The notes beneath the pieces are model-generated. The model did not search any database and had not been told where the DNA came from. It worked only from the letters and a program-made list of their open reading frames with translations. From sequence record NC_020079.1: DNA of 64,000 nt; one strand, written 5' to 3'. Every line of letters starts with the position of its first letter. Position 1 is the first letter of the stretch. This document shows positions 12,455-64,000 of the stretch, piece by piece. A program made the translations under genes and the position numbers. This DNA is from Escherichia phage phAPEC8.

Positions 12455-12460
12455 TGGAAT

Positions 12461-12480
12461 AGAGGGGGGATTCCCCCTCT
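12461..12480 (+). terminator. Hairpin after tailspike gene
   Basis: AGAGGGGG-GATT-CCCCCTCT perfect 8 bp stem; weak U-tract. Confidence 0.35.
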
Positions 12481-12516
12481 TCTTCCAATAGAATGGTCTA
12501 ATGATAGGAGAGATAA

Positions 12517-14541
12517 ATGAATTTAACAAGACCTAATAGTGCGATAGCCGATCTGGTAGAAGCTACTTATCGAAAACGTCGCAGCTTTGAGGCAGGTTTT
12601 ACATTACGTAATTCCCGTGAAGTTTTGCTGTTAGCAGCAGAAGGGAATTATTACCAATGGAAAGGAACTTTTCCTAAAGTTGTTCCAGCAAACTCTACGC
12701 CAGCCACCACAGGTGGTATTTCTTCCCTTGCATGGCAAAGTGTTGGGACCGCTGATGATATAGCAATTATCAATGCCAAGTTTACGGCAATGCAGCAACA
12801 GATTGATGATCTGTCGGAAACAATACCTGAAGCTGGTAAATCGGCTTATCAGATCGCACTTGATAATGGTTTTGTTGGAACAGAAGCACAATGGCTTGCT
12901 TCTTTGAAAGGGGATACTGGTGCTCAACTTAATATTAAAGGATCATTAGCAAGCACTAGTGAACTACCATCCACAGGTAACGTTGCAGGGGATGGTTATA
13001 TCGTAGGTGATGTAATCTACGCTTGGGATGGTTCTGTTTGGAAACTTATTTCTTCTCTTGGGCCAGAAGGTAAATCAGCTTACGAGGTATGGTTGGCAGA
13101 TGGTAATACAGGATCTGTTTATGATTTTCTTACCTCTATAAAAGGTGATAAAGGTGATGTTGGTCCTACAGGGCCACAGGGAGCACCTGGTGTTAACGCC
13201 AACGGTTTTGATTATCGTGGGGATTTGCCTTCTACAAGTAACTTACCACAACCTAACTCTGAAAACGTAAGCCAAGCTTATTCTATCAATGGTAATCTTT
13301 ATGTCTCTAATGGGACAGCTTGGGTCAACATGGGTAATATTGTTGGTCCTCAAGGTCCACAAGGTGAGGCAGGTAAAGACGGTCTTGATGGAACAGATGG
13401 AGATGAAGGGAAATCTGCATATCAAAGTTGGCTGGATGCTGGTAATGAAGGGACAGAAGTAGATTTTATTGCCTCACTTAAAGGTCCAAAAGGAGACAAG
13501 GGTGATCAAGGAGAGCGAGGTCCACAAGGTGAACTAGGTCCACAAGGACCAGTGGGTGCAACAGGATCAGGCTTAGAGATTATCGGGGTTCTGAACAGTG
13601 AAGCTGAACTTCCTCCTACTGGAGAAGTAGGTGATGCATATAAAATTAATAATGATTTGTATGTTTGGATTCAAGATGCTACGGAATGGATGAATGTTGG
13701 CAGTCTTGGAGGAACATCAATTACAGCTAAAGGTCATGTTCCGAACAGTGAAGCTCTCCCTGTTTATAATAACTATGGCGATGCCTACTTAACTGAAGAC
13801 ACCAGTAATCTTTACATCTATACCTACGATCAAGACACCAATTCCGCATCTTTTGTTGACATGGGAAGTATTAAAGGCGACAAAGGTGAAAAAGGGGATA
13901 AAGGGGATAAGGGTGATCCTGGAACAAATGGAACCAACGGTACTGATGGGACCAACGGTAAGGACGGCGCACAGTGGTTTGTAGCAACAACTAATCCAGT
14001 CGCAGGAGACGGTGTTATCAATGATTACGCCTTCAATACTACCACTGGAGCAGTGTTTAAGAAAACAGATTCTTCTACGTGGACACTTATAGGAACTCTT
14101 CCTAGTATACCAGAAGCCCCTCAAGACGGCTTGACGTATGGTCGTTCTGATGGAAACTGGATCGAAATATCAGGATCAGATCCTACAGAAGCTATAACAC
14201 CAACTAGAGTTACAGCAGGTTTCATGGAACTTGAAACAACTACTGCCAACTCTGGAGCATCTTGGACTCCTTCTGGAACTTCCAATATGTATGTTGTTAC
14301 AGTAACTGATGCTCTGACAGTTGGAGCATGGCCTGGTGTCACTGGCTCTACAAAACCTAAAGCGTTTTCAGCAATGATTTATTTGATTCAAGATACAACG
14401 GGACACACGGTTACACTAGATGCGTCTTATGGAGCACTAAATGATACAGAAATAGCAACTACTGCTAACGCAGTAACAATTTTGCAATTAACGTATCCTG
14501 GTGTGGGTGATATCGTGGACATGGTTGTTGTAACACGATAA
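12517..14541 (+). CDS. Collagen-like repeat tail fibre protein
   Basis: 674 aa with several Gly-X-Y runs (GDKGDVGPTGPQGAPG; GPQGPQGEAGKDGLDGTDGDEG; GPKGDKGDQGERGPQGELGPQGPVGATG; GDKGEKGDKGDKGDPGTNGTNGTDGTNGKDG). Confidence 0.65.
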   Translation: MNLTRPNSAIADLVEATYRKRRSFEAGFTLRNSREVLLLAAEGNYYQWKGTFPKVVPANSTPATTGGISSLAWQSVGTADDIAIINAKFTAMQQQIDDLSETIPEAGKSAYQIALDNGFVGTEAQWLASLKGDTGAQLNIKGSLASTSELPSTGNVAGDGYIVGDVIYAWDGSVWKLISSLGPEGKSAYEVWLADGNTGSVYDFLTSIKGDKGDVGPTGPQGAPGVNANGFDYRGDLPSTSNLPQPNSENVSQAYSINGNLYVSNGTAWVNMGNIVGPQGPQGEAGKDGLDGTDGDEGKSAYQSWLDAGNEGTEVDFIASLKGPKGDKGDQGERGPQGELGPQGPVGATGSGLEIIGVLNSEAELPPTGEVGDAYKINNDLYVWIQDATEWMNVGSLGGTSITAKGHVPNSEALPVYNNYGDAYLTEDTSNLYIYTYDQDTNSASFVDMGSIKGDKGEKGDKGDKGDPGTNGTNGTDGTNGKDGAQWFVATTNPVAGDGVINDYAFNTTTGAVFKKTDSSTWTLIGTLPSIPEAPQDGLTYGRSDGNWIEISGSDPTEAITPTRVTAGFMELETTTANSGASWTPSGTSNMYVVTVTDALTVGAWPGVTGSTKPKAFSAMIYLIQDTTGHTVTLDASYGALNDTEIATTANAVTILQLTYPGVGDIVDMVVVTR

Positions 14542-19886: not shown

Positions 19887-22484
19887 TCAATGACAGGATG
19901 CCCAGGAATTACCCACATCATATCCGGCAGTAAGCTGAACATTAAGATTGTAAAATTCTCCAGCCTTAGTAACAGCTAAGGCAGCAAGTTCACCTGCCCG
20001 ACTATAGGCTGTAAACCATCCACCTTTGGGAGATTCATGAATGTTAGCCCAAATTTGTCCCGTCTCTTTTTCCTTATTATGCTTCCATTCTTCAACTTTA
20101 GCAAGGCATTCTTTATCAATTTTCTTTTGTTCTTCAGGATCGTCTACTTTCTTCCAACCTAACGATTCAGGTGAAAACCATTTGAATTCTACAAGGTTAC
20201 GAGAAACTTCAAGCTGGGCTTCATCGTGATATGCGATCATTTGTTGCACGAAGTCTTTATTCTTCCAGTCATCTTTAAAGAAGTCAACACTTAGTCCTTC
20301 TTCTTCGATCATGTCGTCATAAATAACCATTGCACGTTTAGCACAGATAACCCCACCACTTTGGAACAGAGAGTTAAGAATCGCGTGAGCAGAACGAGTA
20401 GGAACCTTACGACCGTCAATACCCAAAACATATTGTTTACCAGTCTTAACCCAGAAATCGTTTAAACGTTCTTTAAGACGCGCCAATGGGAATGCAGCTT
20501 CCCAGAAAGCATCGAACACCAATTGACCTGTAAACTTATCGCTACCAATTGTTTTAGCAACCTTGTCGGCTTGTGCACCATAGGTAATACCATACTTAAC
20601 AGATTTAGCAGGACTACGTTCAAATTTACGTCCAATAGTTTCAGTGATACGTTTTGCCATCATTGTGTGAACATCATTAGGTTTCTCTAACAGCAGAGCG
20701 TTACAATATTCGTGTGGCTCCGGCTCGTACCGCCAACAGTAGTGTGATTCAATTTTTGCTTCCAAAGAGTCGAAGTCGTAGCCGATCTGGAAGTATTTAG
20801 GAACCTCTACACCAAACAAGTTACGCATCTCCCATCCAAACAAAGATGTGACACGAGGAATATTAGCTACAGATCTATGCTTCATACGAGAGGTTGCAGC
20901 ATCACATGTAGCGGCTGGTGTAGGAATACGCCCATCCGCCCTTACTGCGGCTAAGAAACCTTTATCGTATTCTTGATCTTCTTCGTCTTCTTCCCAATCA
21001 GCACCGCCACCTAAAATAGAGTTCCTACGATGCTTATACGTTAAGTATTCTACAATCTGTGTAGCATAAGGGAATTTCTCACCCAAAGCTTGCAGGTTAG
21101 GACAGATTTCTTTTTCCTGACCTTTGGTAAAACATGGGTTAGTCAATACTTTAAGACCGCGACCTTTACCTTTTGCTATACGCTCTTGAATCTTCCTTTC
21201 CAAGGTTTCCGGTGTGCACTCCAGATGATCACAACGGTCCTGACAAAAATTAGAAGATAGAGTTTGCTCAACGTAAGCTCGAATACCTTTCTGAAGTTCT
21301 TCCTCGCTCTTTTTAATCTTGGTGCCAGATTTAAGAGTCAAGTCTTTATCTTTATATTCAGACGGTACCCAACCTAATCCTACAAGCCAGTTTTTAATAT
21401 GGGTTGTATCGTTCAATGTTGCAGGGATGTTAGGATCACACAGAGGCTCATCTGCTGCAACTGGCAGTTTCCACTCTTTCCCCAACATAACTAACCACCA
21501 ATCGCCATCCCTCTCTTCCAAATGACCATCATGTTTCTTAGCAAAATTGATCATATGGTTAGTTGGCTCTAAGTTCTTTTTAATTTGCAACTTAGGTGGA
21601 ATAAAAGCTTTAAGATAACCTTTTGTTGCTGGTTTAGGTGGCAAAATAGGCTCAACGAGTAAACGAAGACGCTCCATTTCTGCATCCAAAAAAGCAAGGT
21701 TCTCTTCTGCTTGTTTCATGTTAAAAGCAAACCCACGGTGTTCCTGGCGTGTAATAATGTCTGCTACACGTTGTTCAAGTTCAAATGGACCTTCCCATTT
21801 ATCATAATCACCCCATTCTTCCATAAGGTAATTATATACGCTCGTATTGGCTTTGTTGTCATAGATACAGTAATAAAGCATATCCGCAGCAAAAGTCTTA
21901 AATCGATCTTCTTCTGGAATCTCTTTACGGAAATCTATTTTTACATCACCACCTGCTTTTCGAGAAAGTGCTGCCAAGCTATGTCCTGATTTGCCCTCAA
22001 TCTTTCGATCTGGGTTTAACACTTTACTCAAAATCAAGGAGTCAATAAGTTTTACCTTATTTTTGCCCCACGTATTATATTTAACACTGTAATCTAATCC
22101 ATAAAACAGTTTTGTAGCCAACCAGTCGTAGTTGATACCGTTGTGAGCCACAGCCATTTCAACCAGATATTCAGGCTTGTCTTTAAAATAACCTTCATGA
22201 TTAATAAAATCTGGGAAATCTTTTAGTTGAAAATGTGTGTAATCTTGTGCCACATACTCTTTAAGAACATATGTGTATTTACCATCTGACTCTTCATAAG
22301 GACGCCCATCAAAGATGTATTTAGGGCCATCGTGGAAAGCTACTATTTCTCCTGTTTCATGGTTCTCTAAGACAATACAGTGCATTTGAAATGTGTCTTT
22401 GAGACGATAAGGACTAGCTAAATAATCAATAGTGTCATTATTCAACAATCCGTTTGCTTCAATATCCCATGTAAACTTACTCAC
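19887..22484 (-). CDS. Family A DNA polymerase, T7 gene 5-like
   Basis: 865 aa; N-terminal WDIEANGL (Exo I D-x-E); RSPAKSVKYGITYGAQ (motif B); IAYHDEAQLEV (motif C); C-terminus ...NSWASCH parallels T7 gp5 ...NWAICH. Confidence 0.85.
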   Translation of the reverse strand: MSKFTWDIEANGLLNNDTIDYLASPYRLKDTFQMHCIVLENHETGEIVAFHDGPKYIFDGRPYEESDGKYTYVLKEYVAQDYTHFQLKDFPDFINHEGYFKDKPEYLVEMAVAHNGINYDWLATKLFYGLDYSVKYNTWGKNKVKLIDSLILSKVLNPDRKIEGKSGHSLAALSRKAGGDVKIDFRKEIPEEDRFKTFAADMLYYCIYDNKANTSVYNYLMEEWGDYDKWEGPFELEQRVADIITRQEHRGFAFNMKQAEENLAFLDAEMERLRLLVEPILPPKPATKGYLKAFIPPKLQIKKNLEPTNHMINFAKKHDGHLEERDGDWWLVMLGKEWKLPVAADEPLCDPNIPATLNDTTHIKNWLVGLGWVPSEYKDKDLTLKSGTKIKKSEEELQKGIRAYVEQTLSSNFCQDRCDHLECTPETLERKIQERIAKGKGRGLKVLTNPCFTKGQEKEICPNLQALGEKFPYATQIVEYLTYKHRRNSILGGGADWEEDEEDQEYDKGFLAAVRADGRIPTPAATCDAATSRMKHRSVANIPRVTSLFGWEMRNLFGVEVPKYFQIGYDFDSLEAKIESHYCWRYEPEPHEYCNALLLEKPNDVHTMMAKRITETIGRKFERSPAKSVKYGITYGAQADKVAKTIGSDKFTGQLVFDAFWEAAFPLARLKERLNDFWVKTGKQYVLGIDGRKVPTRSAHAILNSLFQSGGVICAKRAMVIYDDMIEEEGLSVDFFKDDWKNKDFVQQMIAYHDEAQLEVSRNLVEFKWFSPESLGWKKVDDPEEQKKIDKECLAKVEEWKHNKEKETGQIWANIHESPKGGWFTAYSRAGELAALAVTKAGEFYNLNVQLTAGYDVGNSWASCH

Positions 22485-23797: not shown

Positions 23798-23813
23798 AAG
23801 GGCCGAAGCCCTT
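23798..23813 (-). other. Hairpin at the primase-helicase stop
   Basis: AAGGGC-CGAA-GCCCTT overlapping the stop codon. Confidence 0.35.
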
Positions 23814-25590
23814 AATAGTTGCTATCCGTAGGCAAATTAGCAGGATTGTTGAAATACTGCTCTTTGTCATGCAGAGTTGCAGTTCTAATGTCATAGTAAA
23901 ACTGCCCTGCCGGACCAGTTTCTGAGAACTCACGGTTTTTTAGGATAAAGCAATGAGTCGTATTGCGTTCTACAGGGTCTTCAGCGGCTTTATCTCGTTC
24001 CAAAGCCAAGGTAATACCAGCACCTTTAGCCAAGAAACTACTACCCATTGCATCGTCCTCTGTTAAGTGTTCATTGCCACCATTAGCCGATTTCTTAACG
24101 TGTGAGATGACAATAATAGTTATAGCATACTCTTTCATGATGCGCTTCAACCATGTTGCTAACTCTTCCTGGGCTTGAACATCCATACCAGAAAGCAAAT
24201 CAGAATAAGGGTCGATAACAAGAATTGTTACTCCAAAATAGATGATCATCTCCAAAACTTTTTCTTTGATAGACTCCACATCTGCTCCACGATCATCACA
24301 CACATAAAAACGTGGTGATCCATCTTCTCTTTCGTAAAAATCTAGGATTTTTTCTTTATTCTCTTCCAAGATTTGAAATTTCTCTTCCGGTGTTTTCCTG
24401 TGTAGAGGAATATGCAGGAACGAGGACAACAGGTTACGAGAATATTTCTTATAAGTTGCTTCCAAGGACAGAATACCTAGGGTATGTTCTGGGTGCGCAA
24501 CAATAATATGTTTGGTGATCTCGTTCACCATCAAAGTTTTACCGATACTGGTCTTTGCCAGGATAACTGTAATCTCTTCCTCTACTAAACCACCACCCAG
24601 CATATTTGCAGCAACACGCATAAAAGGAGGCAAGGTAATCATCTTGGATTCCAAGCATTCTAATGCAGCTTCATACAAGACATTAGAAGCATAAACACCT
24701 GCTGGGGTGTATAGACGAGCACTCCAAAAAGCTTTTACGAAATCTTTTGCACGACCTTCTTCCAGATACTGATTGGCATCCTTAAGATCCATCTGCATAC
24801 GGTAGACTTTGTTACGAGGCAACACCTTAACAATATTTTCAAATGCCTCATTACCTGCTTTGTCATTATCCATGCAAACAATAATCTTCTTAAATTTTTC
24901 AAAGAAAGGATATTGTGCCTGAACTTGTTTATACATACTGGTTTCACCAGTTGTGCCACTAACTACTGCTGGAAGTTCATATTTGTTGTCCAAGTTTTCA
25001 GACAGCATTTGATAAGCTGCCAGAGCATCGTGTTCACCACCTGTAATTACCACAGTATGAGAACGGTCTGCAAAACGAATTTGTCCAAAAAGATCTACAT
25101 CTTTACCTACTTGACCAATAGGTTTACTGAAATCTTTAGGATGAATACGACGCTTAAAACCAACCAATTCTTTACCGATAGTAGTTGGATATAAACAACT
25201 TTCTACTACCATCTGATCCCCTTCCTGGCGGTATTCATAACGAACACCATAGAAAGATGAAACTTTTTCTTTAATGCCTCGATAACCACGTGGGTTGGTT
25301 GATGTTTCTTGAACAATTTTACGATGAATCTGTTTATTAAATTCCGAACCCACAATCTCCTCCTCTTCTTCTAAAACTTCACCATTTTCTCGTAACCATT
25401 CTACGCTAGGAATAGTGTATTCACACGCAAAGCACTTAGCACCTTTATGCTCTCCATTAGAATCTAATCCATAAACCATCAGGTTATTACGAGAGCGATC
25501 CTTGCCATTTTTCATGCAGCGCGGACAACCTGTATGTCCTTCCTTGCTAAGATCAACATCAAATCCATATTTAGTTATAATGTGCGACAC
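23812..25590 (-). CDS. Bifunctional primase-helicase, T7 gp4-like
   Basis: 592 aa; N-terminal Cys4 zinc ribbon (CPRC...CFAC); central primase region; C-terminal DnaB-like helicase with Walker A-like AKTSIGKT. Confidence 0.75.
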   Translation of the reverse strand: MSHIITKYGFDVDLSKEGHTGCPRCMKNGKDRSRNNLMVYGLDSNGEHKGAKCFACEYTIPSVEWLRENGEVLEEEEEIVGSEFNKQIHRKIVQETSTNPRGYRGIKEKVSSFYGVRYEYRQEGDQMVVESCLYPTTIGKELVGFKRRIHPKDFSKPIGQVGKDVDLFGQIRFADRSHTVVITGGEHDALAAYQMLSENLDNKYELPAVVSGTTGETSMYKQVQAQYPFFEKFKKIIVCMDNDKAGNEAFENIVKVLPRNKVYRMQMDLKDANQYLEEGRAKDFVKAFWSARLYTPAGVYASNVLYEAALECLESKMITLPPFMRVAANMLGGGLVEEEITVILAKTSIGKTLMVNEITKHIIVAHPEHTLGILSLEATYKKYSRNLLSSFLHIPLHRKTPEEKFQILEENKEKILDFYEREDGSPRFYVCDDRGADVESIKEKVLEMIIYFGVTILVIDPYSDLLSGMDVQAQEELATWLKRIMKEYAITIIVISHVKKSANGGNEHLTEDDAMGSSFLAKGAGITLALERDKAAEDPVERNTTHCFILKNREFSETGPAGQFYYDIRTATLHDKEQYFNNPANLPTDSNY

Positions 25591-56482: not shown

Positions 56483-57667
56483 ATGGCAGCACCAAAATCA
56501 TGGGAACAATATAAAGAAGAGTGTCAACCAATAGCAGAGAGTAAGCAAATCCAAATCTTAGGATGGACGGGAGAATGGAAAGGGGTTAATACAAAACTTG
56601 ATTTGTTGTGTCATTGTGGTTATAAATGGGATACTACAAGTATTAACAGTTTTAAACGTGGTGGTGGTTGTCCTATGTGTGCAGGTCAAATTAAAGATTT
56701 AAAAACATACCTTACTGAATGTAAACCAATAGCGGAAGCTAAGGGGATTACCATCATAGGTATCGTAGAACCGTTTAAAGGTGCGCGTACGAAAATGATG
56801 CTACGTTGTAGGTATGGTCATGAATGGAATACATGCAGTTTTGATAGTTTTAAACATGGCAGTGGTTGTCTTATATGTAGGTATGAGAACACAAGGAGGT
56901 CACAAACAATACCAGACGATCAACATATTGCAGATTTCTTTTCTACAGGGAAGTTTAAGGAAGGTACTATTTTCACCAATACGGGGGAACGTAAAGGGTG
57001 TGATCCAATATGGATGGTTCAGTGTCCTGTTTGTTCTCATGATGAATATGTTAAAGCTGGACTATGTGATGGTAAGTTTTATATGACGCGTAGCAATCTT
57101 AAATATGGACACTTACCCTGCCGTTGCTCTGCATCTTATAGGTATACAGCGGAACAGATTACGTATAAAGTAAGAAAGAAAATAGAAAAGAAAGGGTATG
57201 TTTGGATAGGATGGATTACCAAACCATCTTCTATAGGTAAGTTTAAATATGTATGTAAGAGTCATGGGGAACAAAAAGGAACTGCAAACAACCTTTTAAA
57301 CATAGGACAAGGTTGTCCGCAGTGTGCTAACAAAAATCAACAACAAGCCTACATTAATTATATTTACGATGAGCAAGATATTCTCTGTGCACTGAAGTTT
57401 GGTATTGCTAATAATAGTAATCGCCGTATCAAAGAACAAAATAGTCGTAATGTGTTTACTATGAAACAGGGTCAAGTGTGGCACTTCCCTACTGTGAAGC
57501 AATGCAAAGATGCAGAAAAGCGTTGTAAGCGTGTCCTTCACACGGAAGCAGTGAGCAAATATTCTATGCCAGATGGCTACACAGAGACAGTAGAGTTATC
57601 TTGCATGGCCTCAATACAAAACATTTATAAACTTTATGGTGGAATATTACAGGAGGAAACATGTTAG
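56483..57667 (+). CDS. Tandem zinc-ribbon repeat protein, possible nuclease-like C-terminus
   Basis: 394 aa; four ~55 aa repeats each ending in a CxxC knuckle (GCPMCAGQ, GCLICRYE, CPVCSHDE, GCPQCANK); C-terminal YINYIYDEQD...KFGIANNSNRR weakly GIY-YIG-like. Confidence 0.4.
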   Translation: MAAPKSWEQYKEECQPIAESKQIQILGWTGEWKGVNTKLDLLCHCGYKWDTTSINSFKRGGGCPMCAGQIKDLKTYLTECKPIAEAKGITIIGIVEPFKGARTKMMLRCRYGHEWNTCSFDSFKHGSGCLICRYENTRRSQTIPDDQHIADFFSTGKFKEGTIFTNTGERKGCDPIWMVQCPVCSHDEYVKAGLCDGKFYMTRSNLKYGHLPCRCSASYRYTAEQITYKVRKKIEKKGYVWIGWITKPSSIGKFKYVCKSHGEQKGTANNLLNIGQGCPQCANKNQQQAYINYIYDEQDILCALKFGIANNSNRRIKEQNSRNVFTMKQGQVWHFPTVKQCKDAEKRCKRVLHTEAVSKYSMPDGYTETVELSCMASIQNIYKLYGGILQEETC

Positions 57668-58026
57668 TTGACGTTCAAATTATGCGCAACGAAAGGATGG
57701 ATTTCTTTGAAGCAGTAGAGAAACATCTGATCCGATGGGACTATGAATTTGTTCCTGCTGGATGTGGACCAGTAGAGCATTTAGCGGAAGACGATGATGT
57801 ATACATGATCATTCGTCAAGTGTACCAGACAGACCAGTGTGAAGAAACTCCTGAACTAATTTTGTTTGAGTGCAAAGATCTTGCAAAATATTTTGACTAT
57901 GGCGGAAAAGAGGGTCATAATCTCTCCAGATACAATAAACGTCTACTTATCTTAGACTACATGCGGAACAATAAACACAAACTCATCGACGCAGACGCAG
58001 TTTATGGCTACTGGTGGATGGACTAA
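57661..58026 (+). CDS. Hypothetical protein
   Basis: 121 aa ORF. Confidence 0.35.
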   Translation: MLVDVQIMRNERMDFFEAVEKHLIRWDYEFVPAGCGPVEHLAEDDDVYMIIRQVYQTDQCEETPELILFECKDLAKYFDYGGKEGHNLSRYNKRLLILDYMRNNKHKLIDADAVYGYWWMD

Positions 58027-58039
58027 CAAAGGAGAAACT

Positions 58040-58228
58040 ATGGCACGTTTAGCAGATCATGAAATCTTTAAACCTATTCTGAACCACTATGATGAACTTA
58101 AAGCAGTGTTGGATTGTTATAGAGAGGATGAAGAACGTTTGGAAGTCAATCTTAAGATAGTTCTGATGAAAGCTTTTCAAGACGGGCAAGCTAAAGTTTT
58201 AGAAGGCATGAAAAATGAGAATAACTGA
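58040..58228 (+). CDS. Small hypothetical protein
   Basis: Start at ATG behind AGGAGA. Confidence 0.3.
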   Translation: MARLADHEIFKPILNHYDELKAVLDCYREDEERLEVNLKIVLMKAFQDGQAKVLEGMKNENN

Positions 58229-58757
58229 TGAATATGTATTCTTCTTTTCACATAAAGATGTGTTTAGTAATTGGTATATTGCACCCTTTACAGAAACTGA
58301 ACCAGGTTACAATCAGACATTTAATTGTGTCGAACAATACATGATGTGGCGTAAAGCTTTGCTTTTTAATGATCACAACACTGCACAGGCTATTCTGACT
58401 CATAGTTTGATACGGAAAGATGAGAAGATCCAAGCTTATTACAAACGTATGGGTAGGGCAGTGTCAGATTTTGATAACAACGTATGGGAAGAGAACCGTG
58501 AGCGTATTGTTATGCGAGGTTTATGCTTGAAATATGTACAGAATCCAGATTTGTATGCAGACTTACACCTTTACCAATACAAAACGTTTGTTGAAGCAAG
58601 TCCTTACGATAAGGTTTACGGTATTGGAATGGGAATGTATGAACCAGGGGTGCTAAATCCGGTCAACTGGAAAGGGCAAAATCTTTTAGGTAAATATCAT
58701 AACAAACTGATCGAAATACTTTTCCCAGACAAAATACCGCAAAGACGATATTTGTGA
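58215..58757 (+). CDS. NADAR (YbiA-like, DUF1768) domain protein
   Basis: 180 aa; YVFFFSHKDVFSNWYIAPF, FNCVEQYMMWRKALLFND, GQNLLGKYHNKLIEIL match conserved NADAR blocks. Confidence 0.55.
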   Translation: MRITDEYVFFFSHKDVFSNWYIAPFTETEPGYNQTFNCVEQYMMWRKALLFNDHNTAQAILTHSLIRKDEKIQAYYKRMGRAVSDFDNNVWEENRERIVMRGLCLKYVQNPDLYADLHLYQYKTFVEASPYDKVYGIGMGMYEPGVLNPVNWKGQNLLGKYHNKLIEILFPDKIPQRRYL

Positions 58758-58812
58758 TATTTTAACTTTTTTCATTTTTAGAACAAAGGTGTCACTTTGT
58801 AGCACAGAAATA

Positions 58813-58848
58813 AGGCTCCTACAGCACCGTAGAGAGCCTGTTATTTTG
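58813..58848 (+). terminator. Rho-independent terminator ending the + strand block
   Basis: AGGCTCCTAC...GTAGAGAGCCT stem followed by GTTATTTTGT. Confidence 0.5.
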
Positions 58849-59000
58849 TCCTATACAAACCCTTATCTTTTTCAGTTTGCATCACTAGGATTCGATCTAA
58901 GTGGGTTCCTGAAGGTTTACCAATAAGATTAAAGGTTATCTCAAATTCCCACTACCTATTATCTCAAAAATCCCTCAAATTATTTAAACTTTTTAAGAAT

Positions 59001-59047
59001 TTACAAAAGTGAAAGTTGAAAACCAAAATTTAAAGTTTAGGAAAATT
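59001..59047. repeat. AT-rich direct repeat, copy 1
   Basis: ttacaaaagtgaaagttgaaaaccaaaatttaaagtttaggaaaatt; about 75% identical to the copy at 59139-59186. Confidence 0.5.
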
Positions 59048-59138
59048 ATCTTAAAATGTTAGATACAAAACAAAACTCAAAAGTCAAGGAAAATTTTAAA
59101 AATTTTGCGCGCCCACAGTATTTAAAGTTTTTTTGCTT

Positions 59139-59186
59139 TTACAAAAATGAAAGTACAAAAGCAAAATTTAAAGTTTACAAAAATTT
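59139..59186. repeat. AT-rich direct repeat, copy 2
   Basis: tttacaaaaatgaaagtacaaaagcaaaatttaaagtttacaaaaatt. Confidence 0.5.
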
Positions 59187-59223
59187 ATGCAGGTGGGAAT
59201 GAGAAGAGTTCTCATGTGGAAAT

Positions 59224-59242
59224 GCAAATGATAATGATTCGC
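59224..59242. promoter_or_regulatory. Fur-box-like palindrome 1
   Basis: gcAAATGATAATGATTcgc; 14/19 to consensus GATAATGATAATCATTATC. Confidence 0.35.
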
Positions 59243-59281
59243 ATTTAAGTTTATAAATGAGATTGATTCTTATTCAATAAG

Positions 59282-59300
59282 GTAAATGATAATCATTCTC
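59282..59300. promoter_or_regulatory. Fur-box-like palindrome 2
   Basis: gtAAATGATAATCATTctc; core AATGATAATCATT perfect, 17/19 to consensus. Confidence 0.45.
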
Positions 59301-59531
59301 ATTTAGAGAATGACGCGCAGGGGTGGTGTTTGTCTCGCGCTCCCGTGTCCCCTCGCCATGTAATAAGAATAACAGATCCAACCAGGAAAGCAAGCGATTA
59401 TTTTATCTTTACATTTCTTTACAAATATATAGCGCCCAGCCTACCGGCGATCAACCTTCCAACCAGTGCCCCTGGTATGTTAGCCCCGCCTTTACGCCGT
59501 GGGGTGGCGCTTCCTCTTCTGTATGTAAAAC

Positions 59532-59560
59532 AGTATAAGCCCGATCCCTGGGCTTGTCAA
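59532..59560 (-). promoter_or_regulatory. Strong sigma70-like promoter on - strand facing the GC-rich non-coding segment
   Basis: - strand TTGACA-N17-TATACT; the same DNA on + strand forms hairpin AAGCCC..GGGCTT followed by a T-rich run. Confidence 0.4.
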
Positions 59561-59562
59561 TA

Positions 59563-59829
59563 TTATTTTTTGTTTTCTTGCCAGGATAGGACACCTAACC
59601 AAAAATGCATGTCGCCCCGCGCCCCTGGTGGGATCTTGCTTTCCCCGCCGCCACTGCAAGCCCATAAATAACCATCAGCGAACGGATCAAAATTTTCTAT
59701 TTCTTCCACCTTATGATCGCCCAGGTTGAGAACTGTTTCAACCTTTAAGCCCGTTGCGCTTGCTACCTGGTGCACCGTGCCGCCTTGCCAGCCCAATGAG
59801 TGCATAAGGTGTAATGTAGTATTTGTCAT
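59563..59829 (-). CDS. Hypothetical protein with high-GC, host-like composition
   Basis: 88 aa ORF; GC-rich codons unlike neighbours; upstream TTGCTA-N17-TATTAT. Confidence 0.4.
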   Translation of the reverse strand: MTNTTLHLMHSLGWQGGTVHQVASATGLKVETVLNLGDHKVEEIENFDPFADGYLWACSGGGESKIPPGARGDMHFWLGVLSWQENKK

Positions 59830-59938
59830 GGTGTCGCCCTTTCTTTGTTGTGCGCCCTGGTTGGCGCGGTAGAAAGATAATAGCCCTTTCCTTTACATAT
59901 AGCAAGCAAAAAGAAAATAAAAAAGATTGAAAAAGTGG

Positions 59939-59997
59939 TTGACGTTCCTCACCTGGTAGCGTAGTATTCATCTTGTAGGGCGGCAATGGTGCCGCTC
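59939..59997 (+). promoter_or_regulatory. Promoter-hairpin cassette 1
   Basis: TTGACG-N17-TAGTAT then GGGCGGCAATGGTGCCGCTC hairpin, RBS, ATG 60017. Confidence 0.55.
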
Positions 59998-60016
59998 ACT
60001 ATTTGGAGTTAAGATC

Positions 60017-60214
60017 ATGGCAACATTGCACATTGTGGCGAAAGCTGGACAAATCAACGTAATAGTAAACGGTTTTACTGAGTTCAGTCATCCCCAGGAT
60101 GATCATGAAACGGTTTTATCTTTCATTGATTCCCTGTTAGAAATGGGAGTAATTACAGAAGACCAGCACGCTACAAAATGCAAACGCGTTAATCAAATTG
60201 CAGGAATAGAATAA
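60017..60214 (+). CDS. Early small protein
   Basis: 65 aa; RBS GGAG. Confidence 0.45.
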   Translation: MATLHIVAKAGQINVIVNGFTEFSHPQDDHETVLSFIDSLLEMGVITEDQHATKCKRVNQIAGIE

Positions 60215-60220
60215 AAAGTA

Positions 60221-60282
60221 TTGACAACAAACAACAACCTGATAAGATGTACCACATAGGGCGGCGGAATGGTCCACCGCTC
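60221..60282 (+). promoter_or_regulatory. Promoter-hairpin cassette 2
   Basis: TTGACA-N16-TAAGAT then GGGCGGCGGAATGGTCCACCGCTC. Confidence 0.55.
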
Positions 60283-60304
60283 ACAACAGAAGAGAGAAAT
60301 CATC

Positions 60305-60577
60305 ATGGCATCATATAGCGCAACAATGATCGTAGTCGGCACCACTGGTAAACCTATGAGCGGTGGCGGATCTTTCGCAAATATCAACATTGACGGGCGT
60401 TTATCCCTGGACGCAGCGATCACCGTGGCGCGGGAAACATTTAAGAAAGAATGTAAATTCAATAAACAAGATTATCTCGGTTTCGCTATTGAAAAAACCG
60501 CGCGTTTTGTTGATTATAAAAGCCCAAAAATGGTTGATACTACACTAAAAGCGCAAGATGTAGCGTTTTTGCTTTAA
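60305..60577 (+). CDS. Early small protein
   Basis: Start at ATG (MASYSAT) behind AGAAGAGAGA; the longer track ORF begins inside the hairpin. Confidence 0.45.
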   Translation: MASYSATMIVVGTTGKPMSGGGSFANINIDGRLSLDAAITVARETFKKECKFNKQDYLGFAIEKTARFVDYKSPKMVDTTLKAQDVAFLL

Positions 60578-60580
60578 GGC

Positions 60581-60635
60581 TTGACATTAACGAATAATTT
60601 GTTAATATGTTACATAAAGCGGGAATAGTTCCCGC
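60581..60635 (+). promoter_or_regulatory. Promoter-hairpin cassette 3
   Basis: TTGACA-N16-TAATAT then GCGGGAATAGTTCCCGC. Confidence 0.55.
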
Positions 60636-60653
60636 TATTTGTAAGGTGGTAGA

Positions 60654-60911
60654 ATGTTTTACATCAAATTAAAAGGTCACGTGATCGCGTTCAAAGATAA
60701 CGCTTTTTACAGATTAGCAAAATATGCGTTAATACATCCCCACTATGTTTATATAAGGGGGCGTGATGAAATAAATATCTTTGATCAAACAACATGCGAA
60801 AACATCGAGATCCGCAAGGTTGGCGTACGTGATTATCGTACATCTTTCTACCCTTGCAAGGATTCAGCAAGTCTTTTTAAAGTATGCCAATTGTTGAAAA
60901 AAGGTGGTTAA
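60654..60911 (+). CDS. Early small protein
   Basis: 85 aa; RBS AAGGTGG. Confidence 0.45.
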   Translation: MFYIKLKGHVIAFKDNAFYRLAKYALIHPHYVYIRGRDEINIFDQTTCENIEIRKVGVRDYRTSFYPCKDSASLFKVCQLLKKGG

Positions 60912-60912
60912 T

Positions 60913-61470
60913 ATGGGCCGCGAATATGTGATCCAGTCTTGGGTAAAACATGAAGCAGATGATCCGCGCATCATTCCCGATCATCTTATCGATGAATCCA
61001 CGGGATATAGCGGTGAGCAAATAGGTAACAGATTAGCACGTAGTAACGGCAACGTAAAAGCGCGTTATGTGCGCCCTGGCTGGCTGGCAAATGGTAACGC
61101 TGATTTATCCAGTGCGGAAGATGCGAGCGACGGCGCGAAAGATAATCCTTTGTACAAAGTTGATCCGGCTTTTCGTGTCCTAGATGAATACCCCAGCAAG
61201 ATAGCGGCGCTTGATGAAGCATTGGAAAGTAAGCGCATCACCTGGACCGCTTACAACATGGCAAAAAACGTACTTGATGGTAAATTGATTCAAGCTGAAA
61301 GAAAATTAGCCAAAATTGCAGCCATAGCCCAGGAGGAAGACGAGGAGACAACGGAAGAGGAAGAGTACGAAGAGATCCCGCCGTTGTTGTGTGTTGATGC
61401 TTTTCCTGATTATCAGCCGACAGAGGAAGAAAAAAGGATCGCACTAGAAAACTTTGAAAATAGTCTTTGA
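60913..61470 (+). CDS. Early protein with acidic C-terminal region
   Basis: Start at ATG (MGREYV) behind AAGGTGG; EEDEETTEEEEYEE stretch. Confidence 0.4.
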   Translation: MGREYVIQSWVKHEADDPRIIPDHLIDESTGYSGEQIGNRLARSNGNVKARYVRPGWLANGNADLSSAEDASDGAKDNPLYKVDPAFRVLDEYPSKIAALDEALESKRITWTAYNMAKNVLDGKLIQAERKLAKIAAIAQEEDEETTEEEEYEEIPPLLCVDAFPDYQPTEEEKRIALENFENSL

Positions 61471-61525
61471 CATATCGCCGCCACTGGCATAATATTTACC
61501 ACGTAGGGCGGCAATGGTGCCGCTC
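61467..61525 (+). promoter_or_regulatory. Promoter-hairpin cassette 4
   Basis: TTGACA-N17-TAATAT then GGGCGGCAATGGTGCCGCTC. Confidence 0.55.
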
Positions 61526-61552
61526 ATAGTGAAATTATGCAAGAGGCTTACA

Positions 61553-61660
61553 ATGATTAATAAAGGAAATAGCTTGACAGTTGGAACGATTAACGCTATC
61601 ATCTTAGTCGTTCCATTCTGGATCACCGTGGCAGTTATCGCAACAATCATTTTCAAGTAA
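61553..61660 (+). CDS. Small hydrophobic peptide (35 aa, not in ORF track)
   Basis: MINKGNSLTVGTINAIILVVPFWITVAVIATIIFK; first ORF after cassette 4. Confidence 0.3.
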   Translation: MINKGNSLTVGTINAIILVVPFWITVAVIATIIFK

Positions 61661-61670
61661 GGGGCACACC

Positions 61671-61862
61671 ATGTTTAAAAATATCACTGGCAACGTAGCA
61701 ACATTGAAAGCAGGCGACAAAGTAGAATTGCACCGGATCACAATGACAGTAGCGCACGTCGAGAAAGTGCCACCGCATCACCGCAAGATCTCGCTAATGT
61801 GCGACAAAGGGCGCAACATTACCGCCACACTGCACGAAAAAGATAACGTAGTCATTTTGTAA
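61671..61862 (+). CDS. Early small protein
   Basis: 63 aa; RBS AAGGGG. Confidence 0.4.
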   Translation: MFKNITGNVATLKAGDKVELHRITMTVAHVEKVPPHHRKISLMCDKGRNITATLHEKDNVVIL

Positions 61863-61872
61863 GGTGGACACT

Positions 61873-62154
61873 ATGAGCAAGGTAATTAACTATAAAGAGT
61901 TAAGCCCTACCCTTTCAATGAGTGAATGTACCGATGGGTATTGGCTGTATGATGAAACGCGCGGCATGAATTTAGCAATGCAAGCGAAAACCGAACAAGC
62001 GGCATATGTGCAAGCCCTGGAATATTACCAGCGACGACTACAGGAAGTCGAAAGCAATTATAAAAGCCTGAAATCAAAGGTTGATCACTTTATCAACCAG
62101 GTAGCAGATGACGATGATGATCACTACTGCGAACGATGCGGATCATATAGTTAA
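61873..62154 (+). CDS. Early small protein
   Basis: Start at ATG (MSKVINYK) behind AAGGTGG. Confidence 0.4.
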   Translation: MSKVINYKELSPTLSMSECTDGYWLYDETRGMNLAMQAKTEQAAYVQALEYYQRRLQEVESNYKSLKSKVDHFINQVADDDDDHYCERCGSYS

Positions 62155-62162
62155 AAATATCT

Positions 62163-62224
62163 TTGACAACGTTTAAAATTAGTGTAAGATGTATCACATA
62201 GAGCGGCGGAATGGTTTCCCGCTC
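62163..62224 (+). promoter_or_regulatory. Promoter-hairpin cassette 5
   Basis: TTGACA-N16-TAAGAT then GAGCGGCGGAATGGTTTCCCGCTC. Confidence 0.55.
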
Positions 62225-62245
62225 ACAACAGAGAGATTAAAGATT

Positions 62246-62473
62246 ATGGCTATCAATATTGTTCGCGTATCCGGTACCGTTGGTAACTCCCAGGTTGTAG
62301 CAGTTATCACAGAGAAGAAAGGGGATGATCTTCACTCTTCCTTGAATAGCTGGGCGGTCGCTAACTTCGGGCAATGGTCGAGCGTTGAGTACATCGAATC
62401 CTACCAGGTGCCGACGATTAGCCTAACCGATCTCAACGTTGATCGCTTGTTGTGCCTGGATGAATTAATCTGA
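62246..62473 (+). CDS. Early small protein
   Basis: Start at ATG (MAINIV) after purine-rich RBS; the track ORF start at 62189 lies in the hairpin. Confidence 0.45.
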   Translation: MAINIVRVSGTVGNSQVVAVITEKKGDDLHSSLNSWAVANFGQWSSVEYIESYQVPTISLTDLNVDRLLCLDELI

Positions 62474-62483
62474 AAAAAGATTG

Positions 62484-62541
62484 TTGACACCGGAAAGAAA
62501 AAGAGTAGAATATATTACATAGGGCGGCAATGGTGCCGCTC
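62484..62541 (+). promoter_or_regulatory. Promoter-hairpin cassette 6
   Basis: TTGACA-N16-TAGAAT then GGGCGGCAATGGTGCCGCTC. Confidence 0.55.
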
Positions 62542-62564
62542 ACAACAGAAGAGAGATTATCACG

Positions 62565-62780
62565 ATGGCTAATATCCGCACTTTACTGAAAAATGCAAGT
62601 CAAGTTTTATTTTCAGATGACGAGTATTTCAATAAAGACATTACAGGCGTGAAAAATTTAAAAGACGTGAAGGATGTTATCGGTATCCGTGGATCTTTAC
62701 GTAAGGGCGATTACTACGGTAACAAGGTGCAATATAAACTGTCAAAGGATTACAATTTTACTTTGACAATTATTTCATAA
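62565..62780 (+). CDS. Early small protein
   Basis: 71 aa ORF. Confidence 0.45.
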   Translation: MANIRTLLKNASQVLFSDDEYFNKDITGVKNLKDVKDVIGIRGSLRKGDYYGNKVQYKLSKDYNFTLTIIS

Positions 62781-62786
62781 AACCGC

Positions 62787-62846
62787 TTGCAATACTGCAA
62801 AAATAAAGTAAACTATATTCATCAAGGCGGGGAATGGTCCGCCGCC
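62787..62846 (+). promoter_or_regulatory. Promoter-hairpin cassette 7
   Basis: TTGCAA-N16-TAAACT then GGCGGGGAATGGTCCGCCGCC. Confidence 0.45.
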
Positions 62847-62870
62847 TAACAAAGAGAAGAGGAAAATATC

Positions 62871-63038
62871 ATGATCACTTTCGCTACCCGTGAAGCCGCT
62901 CGCAACGTTGCACGTAAAGTTAACGCCGCCAACCTGGGCGCTACACTTAAAGCCCCGGTAAAAGATGAATCAGGAAAATGGATCTTCCCTGGTTTGCGTC
63001 ACGCTGACAAGTTAGGTACTTTAAGCCTTAAAAAATAA
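62871..63038 (+). CDS. Early small basic protein (55 aa, not in ORF track)
   Basis: MITFATREAARNVARKVNAANLGATLK...; first 15 nt identical to the gene at 63113. Confidence 0.35.
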   Translation: MITFATREAARNVARKVNAANLGATLKAPVKDESGKWIFPGLRHADKLGTLSLKK

Positions 63039-63041
63039 TCG

Positions 63042-63078
63042 TTGACTTTTCGTTATAGCGCCTTATAATGGGCGCTAT
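63042..63078 (+). promoter_or_regulatory. Promoter with palindrome overlapping the -10 (cassette 8, variant)
   Basis: TTGACT-N16-TATAAT embedded in ATAGCGCC-ttataatg-GGCGCTAT. Confidence 0.5.
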
Positions 63079-63112
63079 AGAGAAGAGAAACCACTACTAA
63101 CAAGGAAACATC

Positions 63113-63334
63113 ATGATCACTTTCGCTATTGTCGCCGTTGTCGCTGGTCAAGTTTACGTAAATGAGACATTTACTACAGAAGACAAGGCGGCAGGAGATA
63201 TAACCGCCGTTTACAACGAGTGCAAGGCAGTAGAAAGGATGTTAGCGCCTTGTATGCTAATGAGTGAACGCCAGGACGGGATAACAGTATTTACTAACAT
63301 TGAAACAGGGTACCAAATGGTAGTAACAAAATAA
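63113..63334 (+). CDS. Early small protein, N-terminally hydrophobic
   Basis: 73 aa; MITFAIVAVVAGQVYV. Confidence 0.4.
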   Translation: MITFAIVAVVAGQVYVNETFTTEDKAAGDITAVYNECKAVERMLAPCMLMSERQDGITVFTNIETGYQMVVTK

Positions 63335-63337
63335 AGC

Positions 63338-63394
63338 TTGACACGGATTTAATTTTCAGTAAACTGTTACACGTAGGGCGGGAATAGTTCCCGC
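63338..63394 (+). promoter_or_regulatory. Promoter-hairpin cassette 9
   Basis: TTGACA-N16-TAAACT then GGGCGGGAATAGTTCCCGC. Confidence 0.55.
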
Positions 63395-63412
63395 TAAAAA
63401 GAGAGAAAGACC

Positions 63413-63766
63413 ATGAAAGCACAAAATGCAATTAAAGAGTACATCCTTGCCGCTATCGATTTTAATGATCACGGTATTACAACCGAAAAAGAGAAGATCG
63501 CGGAATTGATGCGCCGTTTTAATTCCGAGTACTGGTACCCTGATAACCAATCACGTTTTAATTATAGTATTGTTAAAGCACTTGCATCATGGTTACAAGG
63601 TTTGCCATCAGATATCAATATCGCTTTCGAATATTGGGAAATTGATCGCTTGTTAACATCCTGGGGATACATTAAAGAGAATAGCAACGATGATAAAATC
63701 CAACGAGAAAGGGAAAATTATTGGCTTTATATTGCAGGCGTGATCCTTGCTTGCTCTTATGAATGA
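63413..63766 (+). CDS. Early protein
   Basis: 117 aa; RBS AGAGAGAAAGA. Confidence 0.45.
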   Translation: MKAQNAIKEYILAAIDFNDHGITTEKEKIAELMRRFNSEYWYPDNQSRFNYSIVKALASWLQGLPSDINIAFEYWEIDRLLTSWGYIKENSNDDKIQRERENYWLYIAGVILACSYE

Positions 63767-63772
63767 TAAACC

Positions 63773-63826
63773 TTGACAATTTTACAAAACAGTTTAAATT
63801 AACAATATAGCGGCAATGGTGCCGCT
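63773..63826 (+). promoter_or_regulatory. Promoter-hairpin cassette 10
   Basis: TTGACA-N16-TAAATT then AGCGGCAATGGTGCCGCT. Confidence 0.5.
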
Positions 63827-63845
63827 CATATGAAGAGGAAACAAA

Positions 63846-63992
63846 ATGAATACATCTGATCGCGCAGAAAAAATTCAATCTTCCAAGATCCGCAAGGCCT
63901 GGAACGAGGAAGTGATCCGCAAAGGCGACAAGCGCAATAAAACAAAGCGCGGGAAGAGTGACAAATATAATTGGATGGATTTAGAGGATTAA
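63846..63992 (+). CDS. Early small basic protein (48 aa, not in ORF track)
   Basis: MNTSDRAEKIQSSKIRKAWNEEVIRKGDKRNK...; RBS GAGGAAA. Confidence 0.35.
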   Translation: MNTSDRAEKIQSSKIRKAWNEEVIRKGDKRNKTKRGKSDKYNWMDLED

Positions 63993-64000
63993 CATAACAA

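Follow-up and report, generated by a model that had tools for sequence, protein, structure and literature searches.

A conserved non-coding hub of AT-rich repeat modules, Fur-operator-like boxes and inward-facing promoters in rV5-like phages, with a possible role as a replication origin

In phage T7, replication begins in AT-rich DNA that follows a pair of tandem promoters; the primary T7 origin consists of the promoters phi1.1A and phi1.1B followed by this AT-rich region. Similarly, the T4 origins oriF and oriG each comprise a promoter and a downstream unwinding element, and are primed by an R-loop. Iteron origins, among them lambda ori, P1 oriR and those of the iteron plasmids, carry direct repeats of one orientation beside AT-rich DNA. 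Repeats of another kind are found in the untranslated repeat region 3 of T5, which is rich in DRC repeats and palindromes and which Davison regarded as the likely site of the injection stop signal; the text of that paper makes no mention of Fur. The rV5-like, Phapecoctavirus and Justusliebigvirus phages are widely isolated and have been proposed for therapy, and they are not known to have a mapped origin or any mapped cis-acting control site. Skew analysis in the rV5 genome paper tracked only transcription and revealed no origin, and the genome map in that paper shows an unnamed 'non-coding' box. In the searchable literature we found no description of the hub that we analyse here, of its modules or of its Fur-like boxes, and nothing relevant on an origin, on repeats or on Fur in these phages.

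The hub is a 1.1-kb non-coding control region that is common to >200 rV5-like phages. We examined it in a 64,000-nt stretch of Escherichia phage phAPEC8 (NC_020079.1; hereafter the window), which represents a phAPEC8-like Phapecoctavirus (Stephanstirmvirinae) with a genome of ~150 kb; many Phapecoctavirus phages are 97-99% identical over the island and its flanks. The non-coding stretch, or island, extends from 58758 to 59562, between the plus-strand block and the array of small early ORFs (Table 1). An initial annotation of this DNA had reported AT-rich direct repeats in the island and had placed them between the end of a plus-strand block and the early array; the location is borne out, with the terminator of the plus-strand operon and the small-ORF array flanking the island. 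Each of the small early ORFs from 59939 onward has its own sigma-70 promoter and hairpin, and the 88-aa ORF on the other strand has its own leftward promoter, so that early transcription diverges at ~59.9 kb and the island forms the non-coding leftward arm. At the other side, the motif TGATATTTG is found in 2-4 copies at the same relative position in every lineage, despite differences in the upstream gene. The hairpin terminator is T-rich on both sides and is thus probably bidirectional, in which case it would also halt leftward early transcripts; a rho-independent terminator is annotated at the corresponding site of phage ASO2A.

Table 1. Coordinates of the features in and around the non-coding island
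Feature	Position	Strand	Description
Tail fibres, spikes	1-17 kb		
Minus-strand block	~17 to 52 kb		Pol I-type DNA polymerase, primase/helicase, ribonucleotide reductases, helicases
Pol I-type (Pol A-type) DNA polymerase	19887-22484		In minus-strand block
Fused T7-gp4-like primase/helicase	23812-25590		In minus-strand block
Plus-strand block	~52 to 58.7 kb		Last genes: AAA ATPase, HNH endonuclease, NADAR
NADAR-domain gene	58215-58757	+	End of plus-strand block
Boundary motif GATATTTG-TGATATTTT	58746-58762	+	Overlaps NADAR stop codon; left edge of island
Hairpin terminator of plus-strand operon	58813-58849	.	RNA fold -16.2 kcal/mol, z = -4.2
24-nt tandem repeat, 2.1 copies	58936-58984	+	TTATCTCAAA twice; TRF
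Module M1	58976-59047	+	Box A TATTTAAACTTTTT, TTTACAAAAGTGAAAGT, box B CAAAATTTAAAGTTTA, then A/T tract
M2, probably a decayed middle module	59048-59113	+	Half copy 59064-59096, tract GGAAAATTTTAAAAATTTT, then GCGCGC
Module M3	59114-59185	+	Second full copy, 82% identical to M1
Four palindromic Fur-operator-like boxes	59198-59305	.	29-bp period; centres ~59207, 59236, 59265, 59294
P2 leader	59306-59360	-	GC-rich 5' hairpin, then terminator-like hairpin reaching first Fur-like box
Predicted promoter P2	59366-59393	-	TTGCTT, 16-nt spacer, TATTCT; reads leftward; read from sequence
CTTTACATTTCTTTACAAA box	59407-59425	.	Direct 10-bp repeat of CTTTACA; almost no variation in any lineage
P1 leader	59436-59526	-	Almost invariant, e.g. 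GCCACCCCACGGCGWAAAGGCGGGGCTAAC, GGAAGGTGRATCGCCGGTAG
Predicted promoter P1	59532-59560	-	TTGACA, 17-nt spacer, TATACT; reads leftward
88-aa ORF	59563-59829	-	phrog_19316, unknown function; sole coding unit of leftward early arm
First rightward early promoter	59939-59967	+	TTGACG, 17 nt, TAGTAT; start of early array

The island itself is non-coding; its sole ORF (48 aa, 59056-59202) has no visible RBS and contains a 2-nt indel near its end in several close relatives, and we therefore rejected a coding function. Searches of Pfam and PHROGs detected no initiator-like, Rep or DNA-binding domain among the neighbours of the island (the NADAR protein, the HNH endonuclease, the AAA ATPase and the small ORFs), no terminase, ParA or ParB gene adjoins it, and a permissive Rfam scan of 57500-61500 returned no family. 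The motif TATCTCAAA occurs in the window only within the 24-nt tandem repeat, and some, but not all, lineages carry it at the equivalent position. We considered TATCTCAAA as an additional link to T5 and rejected it, since there is one T5-like match and the motif is absent from many rV5-like lineages.

The repeat proper consists of two 72-nt copies, M1 and M3, that are identical at 59 of 72 positions and lie 138 bp apart from start to start. The initial annotation was right about the existence of the AT-rich direct repeats, about their number and about their spacing, but it gave a length of about 47 bp, and its start at 59001 cuts the first 25 nt from copy 1; the identity of about 75% that it gave is also too low, as 59001-59047 and 59139-59185 are ~87% identical when compared by eye. 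The shorter length is explained by the internal structure of the modules. Each full module holds two versions of a AAATTTAAAGTTT-like core motif, WATTTAAASTTT, with a sub-period of 46 bp (58981 and 59027 in M1, 59119 and 59165 in M3), and a decayed copy of the core is found near 59073. With at most one mismatch, the core motif has 9 matches in the 64 kb compared to 3.06 expected, and 5 of these fall within 58758-59176. We also considered the core as a dispersed phage promoter motif, a role that we rejected because its occurrence is restricted to the island. When the island (28% GC) was shuffled 500 times with dinucleotides preserved, the best pair of 72-mers had a mean of 36.8 identities (sd 1.6) and a maximum of 43, against the 59 observed, and a gapped alignment of M1 with M3 gives z = 10.4. 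Thus, chance is ruled out, and so is low-complexity AT composition, which had been raised as an explanation of the similarity.

The DNA between the two full copies, which had been said to contain further motifs, holds the half copy in M2, and the likeness of the whole of M2 to the modules is weak (z ~2, reached by 31 and 74 of 1000 shuffles). In sister genera, three modules are present with a period of 64-75 bp, so that 138 bp corresponds to about two periods with a decayed unit in the middle. M2 is therefore best read as a decayed middle module, a reading that comes from this comparison and not from the window alone.

The modules contain A/T tracts such as AAAATTTTAAAAATTTT and short palindromes, and the least stable duplex in the entire 64 kb is located at 58977-59076, whether stability is averaged over 100, 200 or 300 bp; its nearest-neighbour dG is -1.084 kcal/mol per step, compared to a mean of -1.289 (sd 0.057) for the window. 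Autocorrelation gave no 10-11 bp signal of helical phasing of the A-tracts. Matches to TTTACA-18-CAAAAT were considered as sigma-70 promoters within the modules and were rejected, since they are not retained in the Justusliebigvirus modules.

The modules are under strong purifying selection. Among 8 Phapecoctavirus genomes, no site varies in M1 (0/72) or M3 (0/72) and a single site varies in M2 (1/66), which is 1 variable site in the block of 210. By comparison, 90 of 543 sites vary in the NADAR coding sequence (Fisher p = 6e-13 against the module block), 19 of 125 in the non-coding DNA just upstream (p = 4e-8 against the modules) and 18 of 108 in the palindromic boxes (p = 2e-8). At greater distance, in the comparison with the phiWec186/188/190 phages, M3 is the best conserved module with 16% differences, M1 differs by 21%, and the flanks and coding sequences by 29-46%. 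The repeats are found by BLAST at one place per genome in most records, and, with so few variable sites, they behave as a single-copy, sequence-constrained cis element. Their presence in related phages, on which the initial annotation had made its claim depend, is thus confirmed. These data also bear on the simplest explanation, a functionless duplication in AT-rich spacer DNA. Such DNA duplicates easily; however, the 1/210 variable sites contrast with ~15-17% in the flanks and the neighbouring gene, the repeat architecture is kept across two subfamilies, and composition is excluded by the shuffles. The conservation data make this explanation very unlikely, and we give it almost no weight.

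For comparison across lineages, we took homologous regions from phage records with annotation and used an invariant 26-mer to retrieve others from collections of viral and metagenome sequences. The same island layout is found across the Stephanstirmvirinae and Vequintavirinae; from left to right, it consists of the copies of TGATATTTG, the direct-repeat modules, the palindromic boxes (AATGAKAATNATTMTCATT, one to six of them, usually with a 29-bp period) and a nearly invariant GC-rich element of ~250 bp that is found in 230 phage records. We found no match to the GC-rich element or to the block of the Fur-like array in 5,426 E. coli genomes, and we therefore rejected a host origin for either. 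In many lineages TRF detected two to three module units of 64-75 bp, and arrays at the same position are present in Justusliebigvirus, in Klebsiella phages, in the PVP-SE1 group and at some other loci of the Vequintavirinae type. Three full modules, spaced 66-75 bp apart, are present in Justusliebigvirus and in two further type-I lineages. Repeats at the module position were seen by eye in Certrevirus and in the rV5-type phage LTH01; TRF reported no array with the module period in CR9 or phiTE.

The sequence of the module core is specific to the lineage, but the position, orientation and approximate number of modules are kept. The module types among the lineages are TATTTAAAGTTT, GGTTCTCGATCG, AAAATCCATAATTTT and GAGAACTTGAGGGG; Phapecoctavirus, Justusliebigvirus and some Klebsiella phages have the core TATTTAAAGTTTTT, the PVP-SE1 and Certrevirus group has GGKTCTCGATCG, FBKp34-like phages have AAAATCCATAATTTT, and an rV5-type phage has GAGAACTTGAGGGGTTTTTCA. 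We considered the 88-aa ORF as a partner that determines module specificity, but lineages that differ in module type have the same conserved N-terminus in this protein; it thus shows no co-variation with the modules and was rejected in this role.

Two predicted promoters, P1 and P2, face the modules from the right. Within 58-61 kb, no sequence matches the sigma-70 consensus better than P1 (11/12), and its spacer forms a hairpin that is also terminator-like for the 88-aa ORF. P2 is weak here (8/12, below the threshold of the sigma-70 scan) but stronger in Certrevirus, in which it reads TTGCAA, 17 nt, TATATT. In an alignment of 21 diverse sequences, the critical -35 and -10 positions of P1 are invariant while the sequence of the spacer varies, with the hairpin potential always kept; in P2, GCTTG and TA..T are invariant and the spacer is variable; and the orientation of both promoters towards the modules is conserved. 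From the predicted start sites of P2 and P1, the distance downstream to the AT-rich modules is ~150-550 bp, and neither promoter is followed by a conserved ORF.

In the P1 leader, the pairs found by RNAalifold are mostly invariant, with only one covarying pair. The P2 leader folds with -24.3 kcal/mol (z = -2.7) into two hairpins; its stem varies (GCGAGGGG here, AGCGGG in CR9) with pairing kept as judged by eye, but RNAalifold did not predict the stem. The second hairpin resembles a weak terminator, and much of the transcription may thus stop before the modules. Any leftward transcript reading through this hairpin would traverse first the palindromic boxes, then the modules, before it reached the strong terminator at 58813-58849. 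Leftward transcription is supported by the metagenomic phage L021, in which a cassette with an HNH endonuclease gene is inserted at GATCGC^CGGTAG: the cassette reuses the P1 leader as the 5' UTR of the HNH gene and bears at its far end an outward-facing sigma-70-type promoter (read by eye from the sequence, not from a scan).

If the leftward promoters are active, the modules could act as RNA within a long non-coding early transcript from P1 or P2, for instance as a U-rich sponge for an RNA-binding protein of the host. Such a role would agree with the lack of an ORF downstream and with the 47% U of the modules in the RNA sense. However, when the modules were folded as RNA in either strand, they had no more structure than shuffled sequences (z = +0.4 and -0.5), which favours a role at the level of DNA; a terminator-like hairpin precedes them; and the wholesale replacement of the cores between lineages, with position and number kept, fits better with co-evolution of DNA and protein. 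We consider a function as RNA improbable.

The four palindromic boxes between the P2 leader and the modules look like Fur operators, to judge from their match to the consensus. Compared to the 7-1-7 Fur consensus TGATAATNATTATCA, the box at 59229-59243 has 2 mismatches and that at 59287-59301 has 1; they are the top sites in the window, save one unrelated site with 2 mismatches. The box at 59285-59303 has an exact run of 12 nt, ATGATAATCATT, in common with the classical 19-bp GATAATGATAATCATTATC, and is identical at 17 of 19 positions to the element upstream of fhuA, an established Fur operator, as read from the E. coli K-12 genome. The boxes begin ~45 nt downstream of the predicted P2 start site, and neither the sigma-70 scan nor the 21-sequence alignment revealed a conserved promoter inside the array. 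They thus resemble E. coli Fur operators in sequence but differ in their setting, in that they form an array with 29-bp phasing in a virulent phage, downstream of a promoter and not over its -35 and -10 elements. The 29-bp period recurs in most lineages. Fur-like boxes are also found in three other places: in T5-like phages, inside the left terminal repeat (BLAST with 59220-59320); in the terminus-like non-coding region of the Justusliebigvirus phage BME3, with a perfect TGATAATGATTATCA inside the 342-nt terminal repeat; and in the equivalent region of Phapecoctavirus B15.

We tentatively favour the reading that the repeats are the protein-binding and unwinding part of a lytic origin that is activated by transcription, as in T7 and T4. 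Early in infection, the RNA polymerase of the host would start at P1 (59560->59532) and P2 (59393->59366), and leftward transcription, with no ORF downstream, would cross the putative Fur operators and enter the three AT-rich modules of ~69 bp. The DNA would open at the modules, possibly with an R-loop or a primer RNA, and a factor bound to the lineage-specific module cores may help the opening; the RNA-sense G-skew of the leader, which bears on an R-loop, is only modest (+0.12). The opened modules would then let the T7-gp4-like primase-helicase and the Pol A-type polymerase load, and Fe-Fur bound between promoter and modules could gate the read-through.

Several features of the hub match this type of origin. 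As in the T7 primary origin and in T4 oriF and oriG, promoters, here two in tandem, read into a non-coding, AT-rich and easily melted segment, and the phage, like T7, has a fused primase-helicase of the T7 type together with a Pol A polymerase. The hub differs from the T7 and T4 origins in three respects. First, its promoters are of the host sigma-70 type rather than the phage RNA polymerase or MotA type. Second, the promoters are separated from the AT-rich DNA by ~150 bp of Fur-like operators; we know of no role for Fur boxes in any origin, and we count this against the origin reading. Third, the AT-rich part consists of three conserved modules. The weakness of P2 in this genome, the terminator-like hairpin ahead of the modules and the lack of a GC-skew inflection at the island also count against an origin.

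The initial annotation had likened the repeats to the iteron arrays of replication origins and had considered the location typical for an origin or regulatory hub. The likeness to iteron origins extends to direct repeats in the same orientation with an AT-rich unwinding region, and, as in the lambdoid pairs of ori and O protein, the repeat sequence is specific to the lineage while position and number are conserved. However, iteron origins have at least three helically phased direct repeats of ~17-22 bp, whereas the units here are 69-72 bp long (72 nt in the modules of the window), in two copies plus one decayed copy, with a ~69-bp period and the 46-bp sub-period. Unlike an iteron array, the modules lie neither inside nor beside a cognate initiator gene, although a distant or novel initiator could serve them. 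The DnaA box TTWTNCACA has 7 matches in the window and 0 in the island, the IHF consensus WATCAANNNNTTR has none in the island, and GC skew shows no inflection there. A classical iteron array is therefore not supported, given the unit size and the lack of DnaA and IHF sites and of an initiator gene, while a cis-acting hub, possibly an origin, is a reasonable reading of DNA that is conserved, selected, single-copy and the least stable in a non-coding island. The initial annotation had missed the array of Fur-operator-like boxes and the conserved promoters directed at the repeats, which are the most telling features for how the hub may work.

The same arrangement suggests another function, in which the modules are architectural or regulatory sites for a nucleoid protein or an early phage protein, perhaps nucleated by Fur that spreads from the neighbouring boxes, and replication is not involved. 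They would silence, insulate or terminate the leftward early transcripts where the plus-strand operon converges on them. Fur polymerises into flanking AT-rich DNA at the aerobactin promoter, and here the Fur-like operators directly adjoin the modules, which lie exactly between the leftward promoters and the convergent terminator and contain A/T tracts and short palindromes typical of protein sites. Nevertheless, neither 210 bp of near-invariant sequence nor a set of three modules conserved across subfamilies is obviously needed for insulation, a good terminator is already present, and the 10-11 bp phasing of A-tracts is not seen. We regard this explanation as somewhat unlikely.

The position of the hub relative to the genome ends bears on two further explanations. 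The only genome end reported in the subfamily comes from the BME3 paper, in which PhageTerm gave direct terminal repeats of 342 bp; another paper states that Stephanstirmvirinae have direct terminal repeats. In the BME3 record, the first 342 nt recur at the end, although the record is untidy there, and the start or end points of several further records fall no more than a few hundred bases from the BME3 terminus-like region. The BME3 modules, at 12,065-12,207 of 147,371 bp, are 8.2% from the reported end, with only the early array between. In B15, the closest relative of the window, the terminus-like region is located ~12 kb to the right of the island, beyond the end of the window. We discarded the phiWec188 record as a source of genome ends, since it starts in a coding sequence and is uninformative.

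If the modules were a packaging site, that is, a pac-like site for the terminase small subunit, or a partition centromere, as the initial annotation had also proposed, we would expect the former at a physical genome end or beside the terminase gene, and the latter, like parS and sopC, beside parA and parB genes in a phage with a plasmid lifestyle. Sites such as pac and parS typically consist of direct repeats that occur once and include bends, the modules of the PVP-SE1 and Certrevirus group carry clustered GATC (CTCGATCG) like the P1 pac site, the hub and the terminus-like region both carry Fur-like boxes and TGATATTTG, and the LTH01 record is cut inside the hub. However, the BME3 reported end and the start and end points of other records lie ~11-13 kb from the island (the end data being those of a single paper and an untidy record), the island adjoins no terminase or ParA/ParB gene, the module motif is absent from the terminus-like region, and these are virulent phages with no known plasmid state. 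The distance of ~12 kb to the BME3 end and the lack of an adjoining terminase or ParAB gene weaken this proposal in particular, and we consider it quite improbable.

A distance of ~8% from a genome end recalls T5, and the hub could instead be a boundary or DNA-entry control element like T5 repeat region 3. It would then mark the inner edge of the first ~8% segment to enter the cell, with the early host-takeover genes, and factors of the host or the phage, bound to the modules and Fur-like boxes, would pause or license the entry or the use of what remains of the genome. The two regions are alike in that both are untranslated, border early or pre-early genes at ~8% from a genome end (for the rV5-like phages, the end reported for BME3) and combine a cluster of DRC-like or Fur-like palindromes with a direct-repeat array. 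The Fur-like boxes are linked by BLAST to repeat region 3 in the left terminal repeat of T5-like phages, and the order of direct-repeat array and then Fur-like palindromes is the same in both groups. The first-step transfer of T5 comprises 7.9% of its genome, compared to the 8.2% for BME3, and TGATATTTG occurs with a Fur-like box at the reported BME3 end as well. However, the direct repeats of the T5-like phages (DRD, GTCGGATTTGCACA) are unlike the modules, and the paired DnaA boxes in the inverted repeats IRD' and IRC', which are central to Davison's model, have no counterpart in the island. The terminal repeat that contains the T5 region is 10 kb long, compared to the 342 bp reported for BME3, in a record with messy ends, and the region here is not inside a long terminal repeat. 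According to strand annotations, the early genes run away from the island, while those of phiR2-01 run towards its repeat region, and the match at 8% could be coincidence. We also know of no two-step injection in phages with contractile tails, which we count against this explanation, and we consider it unlikely. It is similarly unlikely that the rV5-like phages (>200 genomes) and the unrelated T5-like phages share in their hubs a checkpoint for genome entry, for replication or for both that depends on a host factor and is tied to iron status. If they do, the AT-rich modules would correspond to the T5 repeats, and the T5 injection stop signal would involve Fur in addition to DnaA.

What was an AT-rich repeat is now a defined element, made up of three modules, a Fur-operator-like array and two predicted promoters, and present in two subfamilies. 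If Fur binds the boxes, lytic development of these phages would be linked to the iron status of the host, and the T5 repeat region thought to hold the injection stop signal would gain a new candidate factor. If the hub is an origin, as we tentatively favour, it would be of use to phage engineering and would help to explain the way in which replication by a T7-type replisome begins in a myovirus of 150 kb.

The GC-rich element of the non-coding island occurs in 230 phage records, while no copy was found in E. coli genomes. The element, which carries the two conserved promoters predicted to read leftward into the repeat modules, has no match in Rfam and shows little covariation. To its left, two of the palindromic boxes differ from the Fur consensus TGATAATNATTATCA by one and two mismatches, and one box is identical to an element upstream of E. 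coli fhuA at 17 of 19 positions; by sequence, the four boxes are near-consensus candidate Fur operators. T5-like phages have the same boxes in their terminal repeats, as do the Justusliebigvirus phage BME3 and B15, the closest Phapecoctavirus relative, in their terminus-like regions. The left island edge carries TGATATTTG repeats in every lineage, irrespective of the upstream gene, and at the reported genome end of BME3, TGATATTTG adjoins a Fur-like box.

Features of the island and its surroundings
Feature	Location	Remarks
HNH/CapR-domain endonuclease	56483-57667	394 aa; just upstream of island
TGATATTTG repeats	58746-58762; L008, about 45-60; L010, 1490-1530	
Fur-operator-like boxes	59198-59305	four, palindromic; 29-bp period
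GC-rich element	59306-59562	minus strand; ~250 bp; almost invariant
Promoter P1	59560->59532	within GC-rich element; sigma-70-type
Promoter P2	59393->59366	within GC-rich element; sigma-70-type
CTTTACATTTCTTTACAAA box		within GC-rich element
Invariant leader		within GC-rich element; contains SD-like GGAAGGTGRATC
Early array	59939-64000	repeated units
HNH endonuclease cassette	L021 (metagenomic phage sequence), 6310-7060	interrupts invariant leader at GATCGC^CGGTAG

In BME3 (stretch 9000-13000; also L008 and L052), the distance from the island to the reported end, an interval that holds only early genes, is 8.2% of the genome length, compared with 7.9% of the T5 genome for the T5 first-step-transfer DNA. 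The end of the BME3 record is scrambled: it has N's, a 257-nt piece occurs twice, and the annotated direct terminal repeat is offset relative to the true 342-nt identity. In the window, each unit of the early array has a small ORF with an RBS, preceded by a sigma-70 promoter, an ACATAG-type start and a GC-rich 5' hairpin; almost none of the products belongs to a known family.

Among the matches to the island and its flanks, several near-identical Phapecoctavirus genomes are labelled as 'Campylobacter', 'Acinetobacter', 'Klebsiella' or 'Pseudomonas' phages, and in at least some of these the host label is probably wrong; the Campylobacter B15 record is flagged UNVERIFIED.

In L021, the P1 leader forms the 5' UTR of the inserted HNH cassette, at whose far end we read a sigma-70-like promoter and a hairpin. 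Mobile promoter/stem-loop cassettes are known from T4-type phages, and the L021 cassette looks like one of these. For the rV5-type phage LTH01, the linear record (PP430345.1) is cut within the invariant GC-rich element, between GAGC and TACCGGCGAT, only a few bases from the position of the L021 insertion; this cut may reflect a convention of annotation or a real end. A homing function is probable for the HNH/CapR-domain endonuclease encoded upstream of the island, and the region seems prone to insertions of the homing-endonuclease type.
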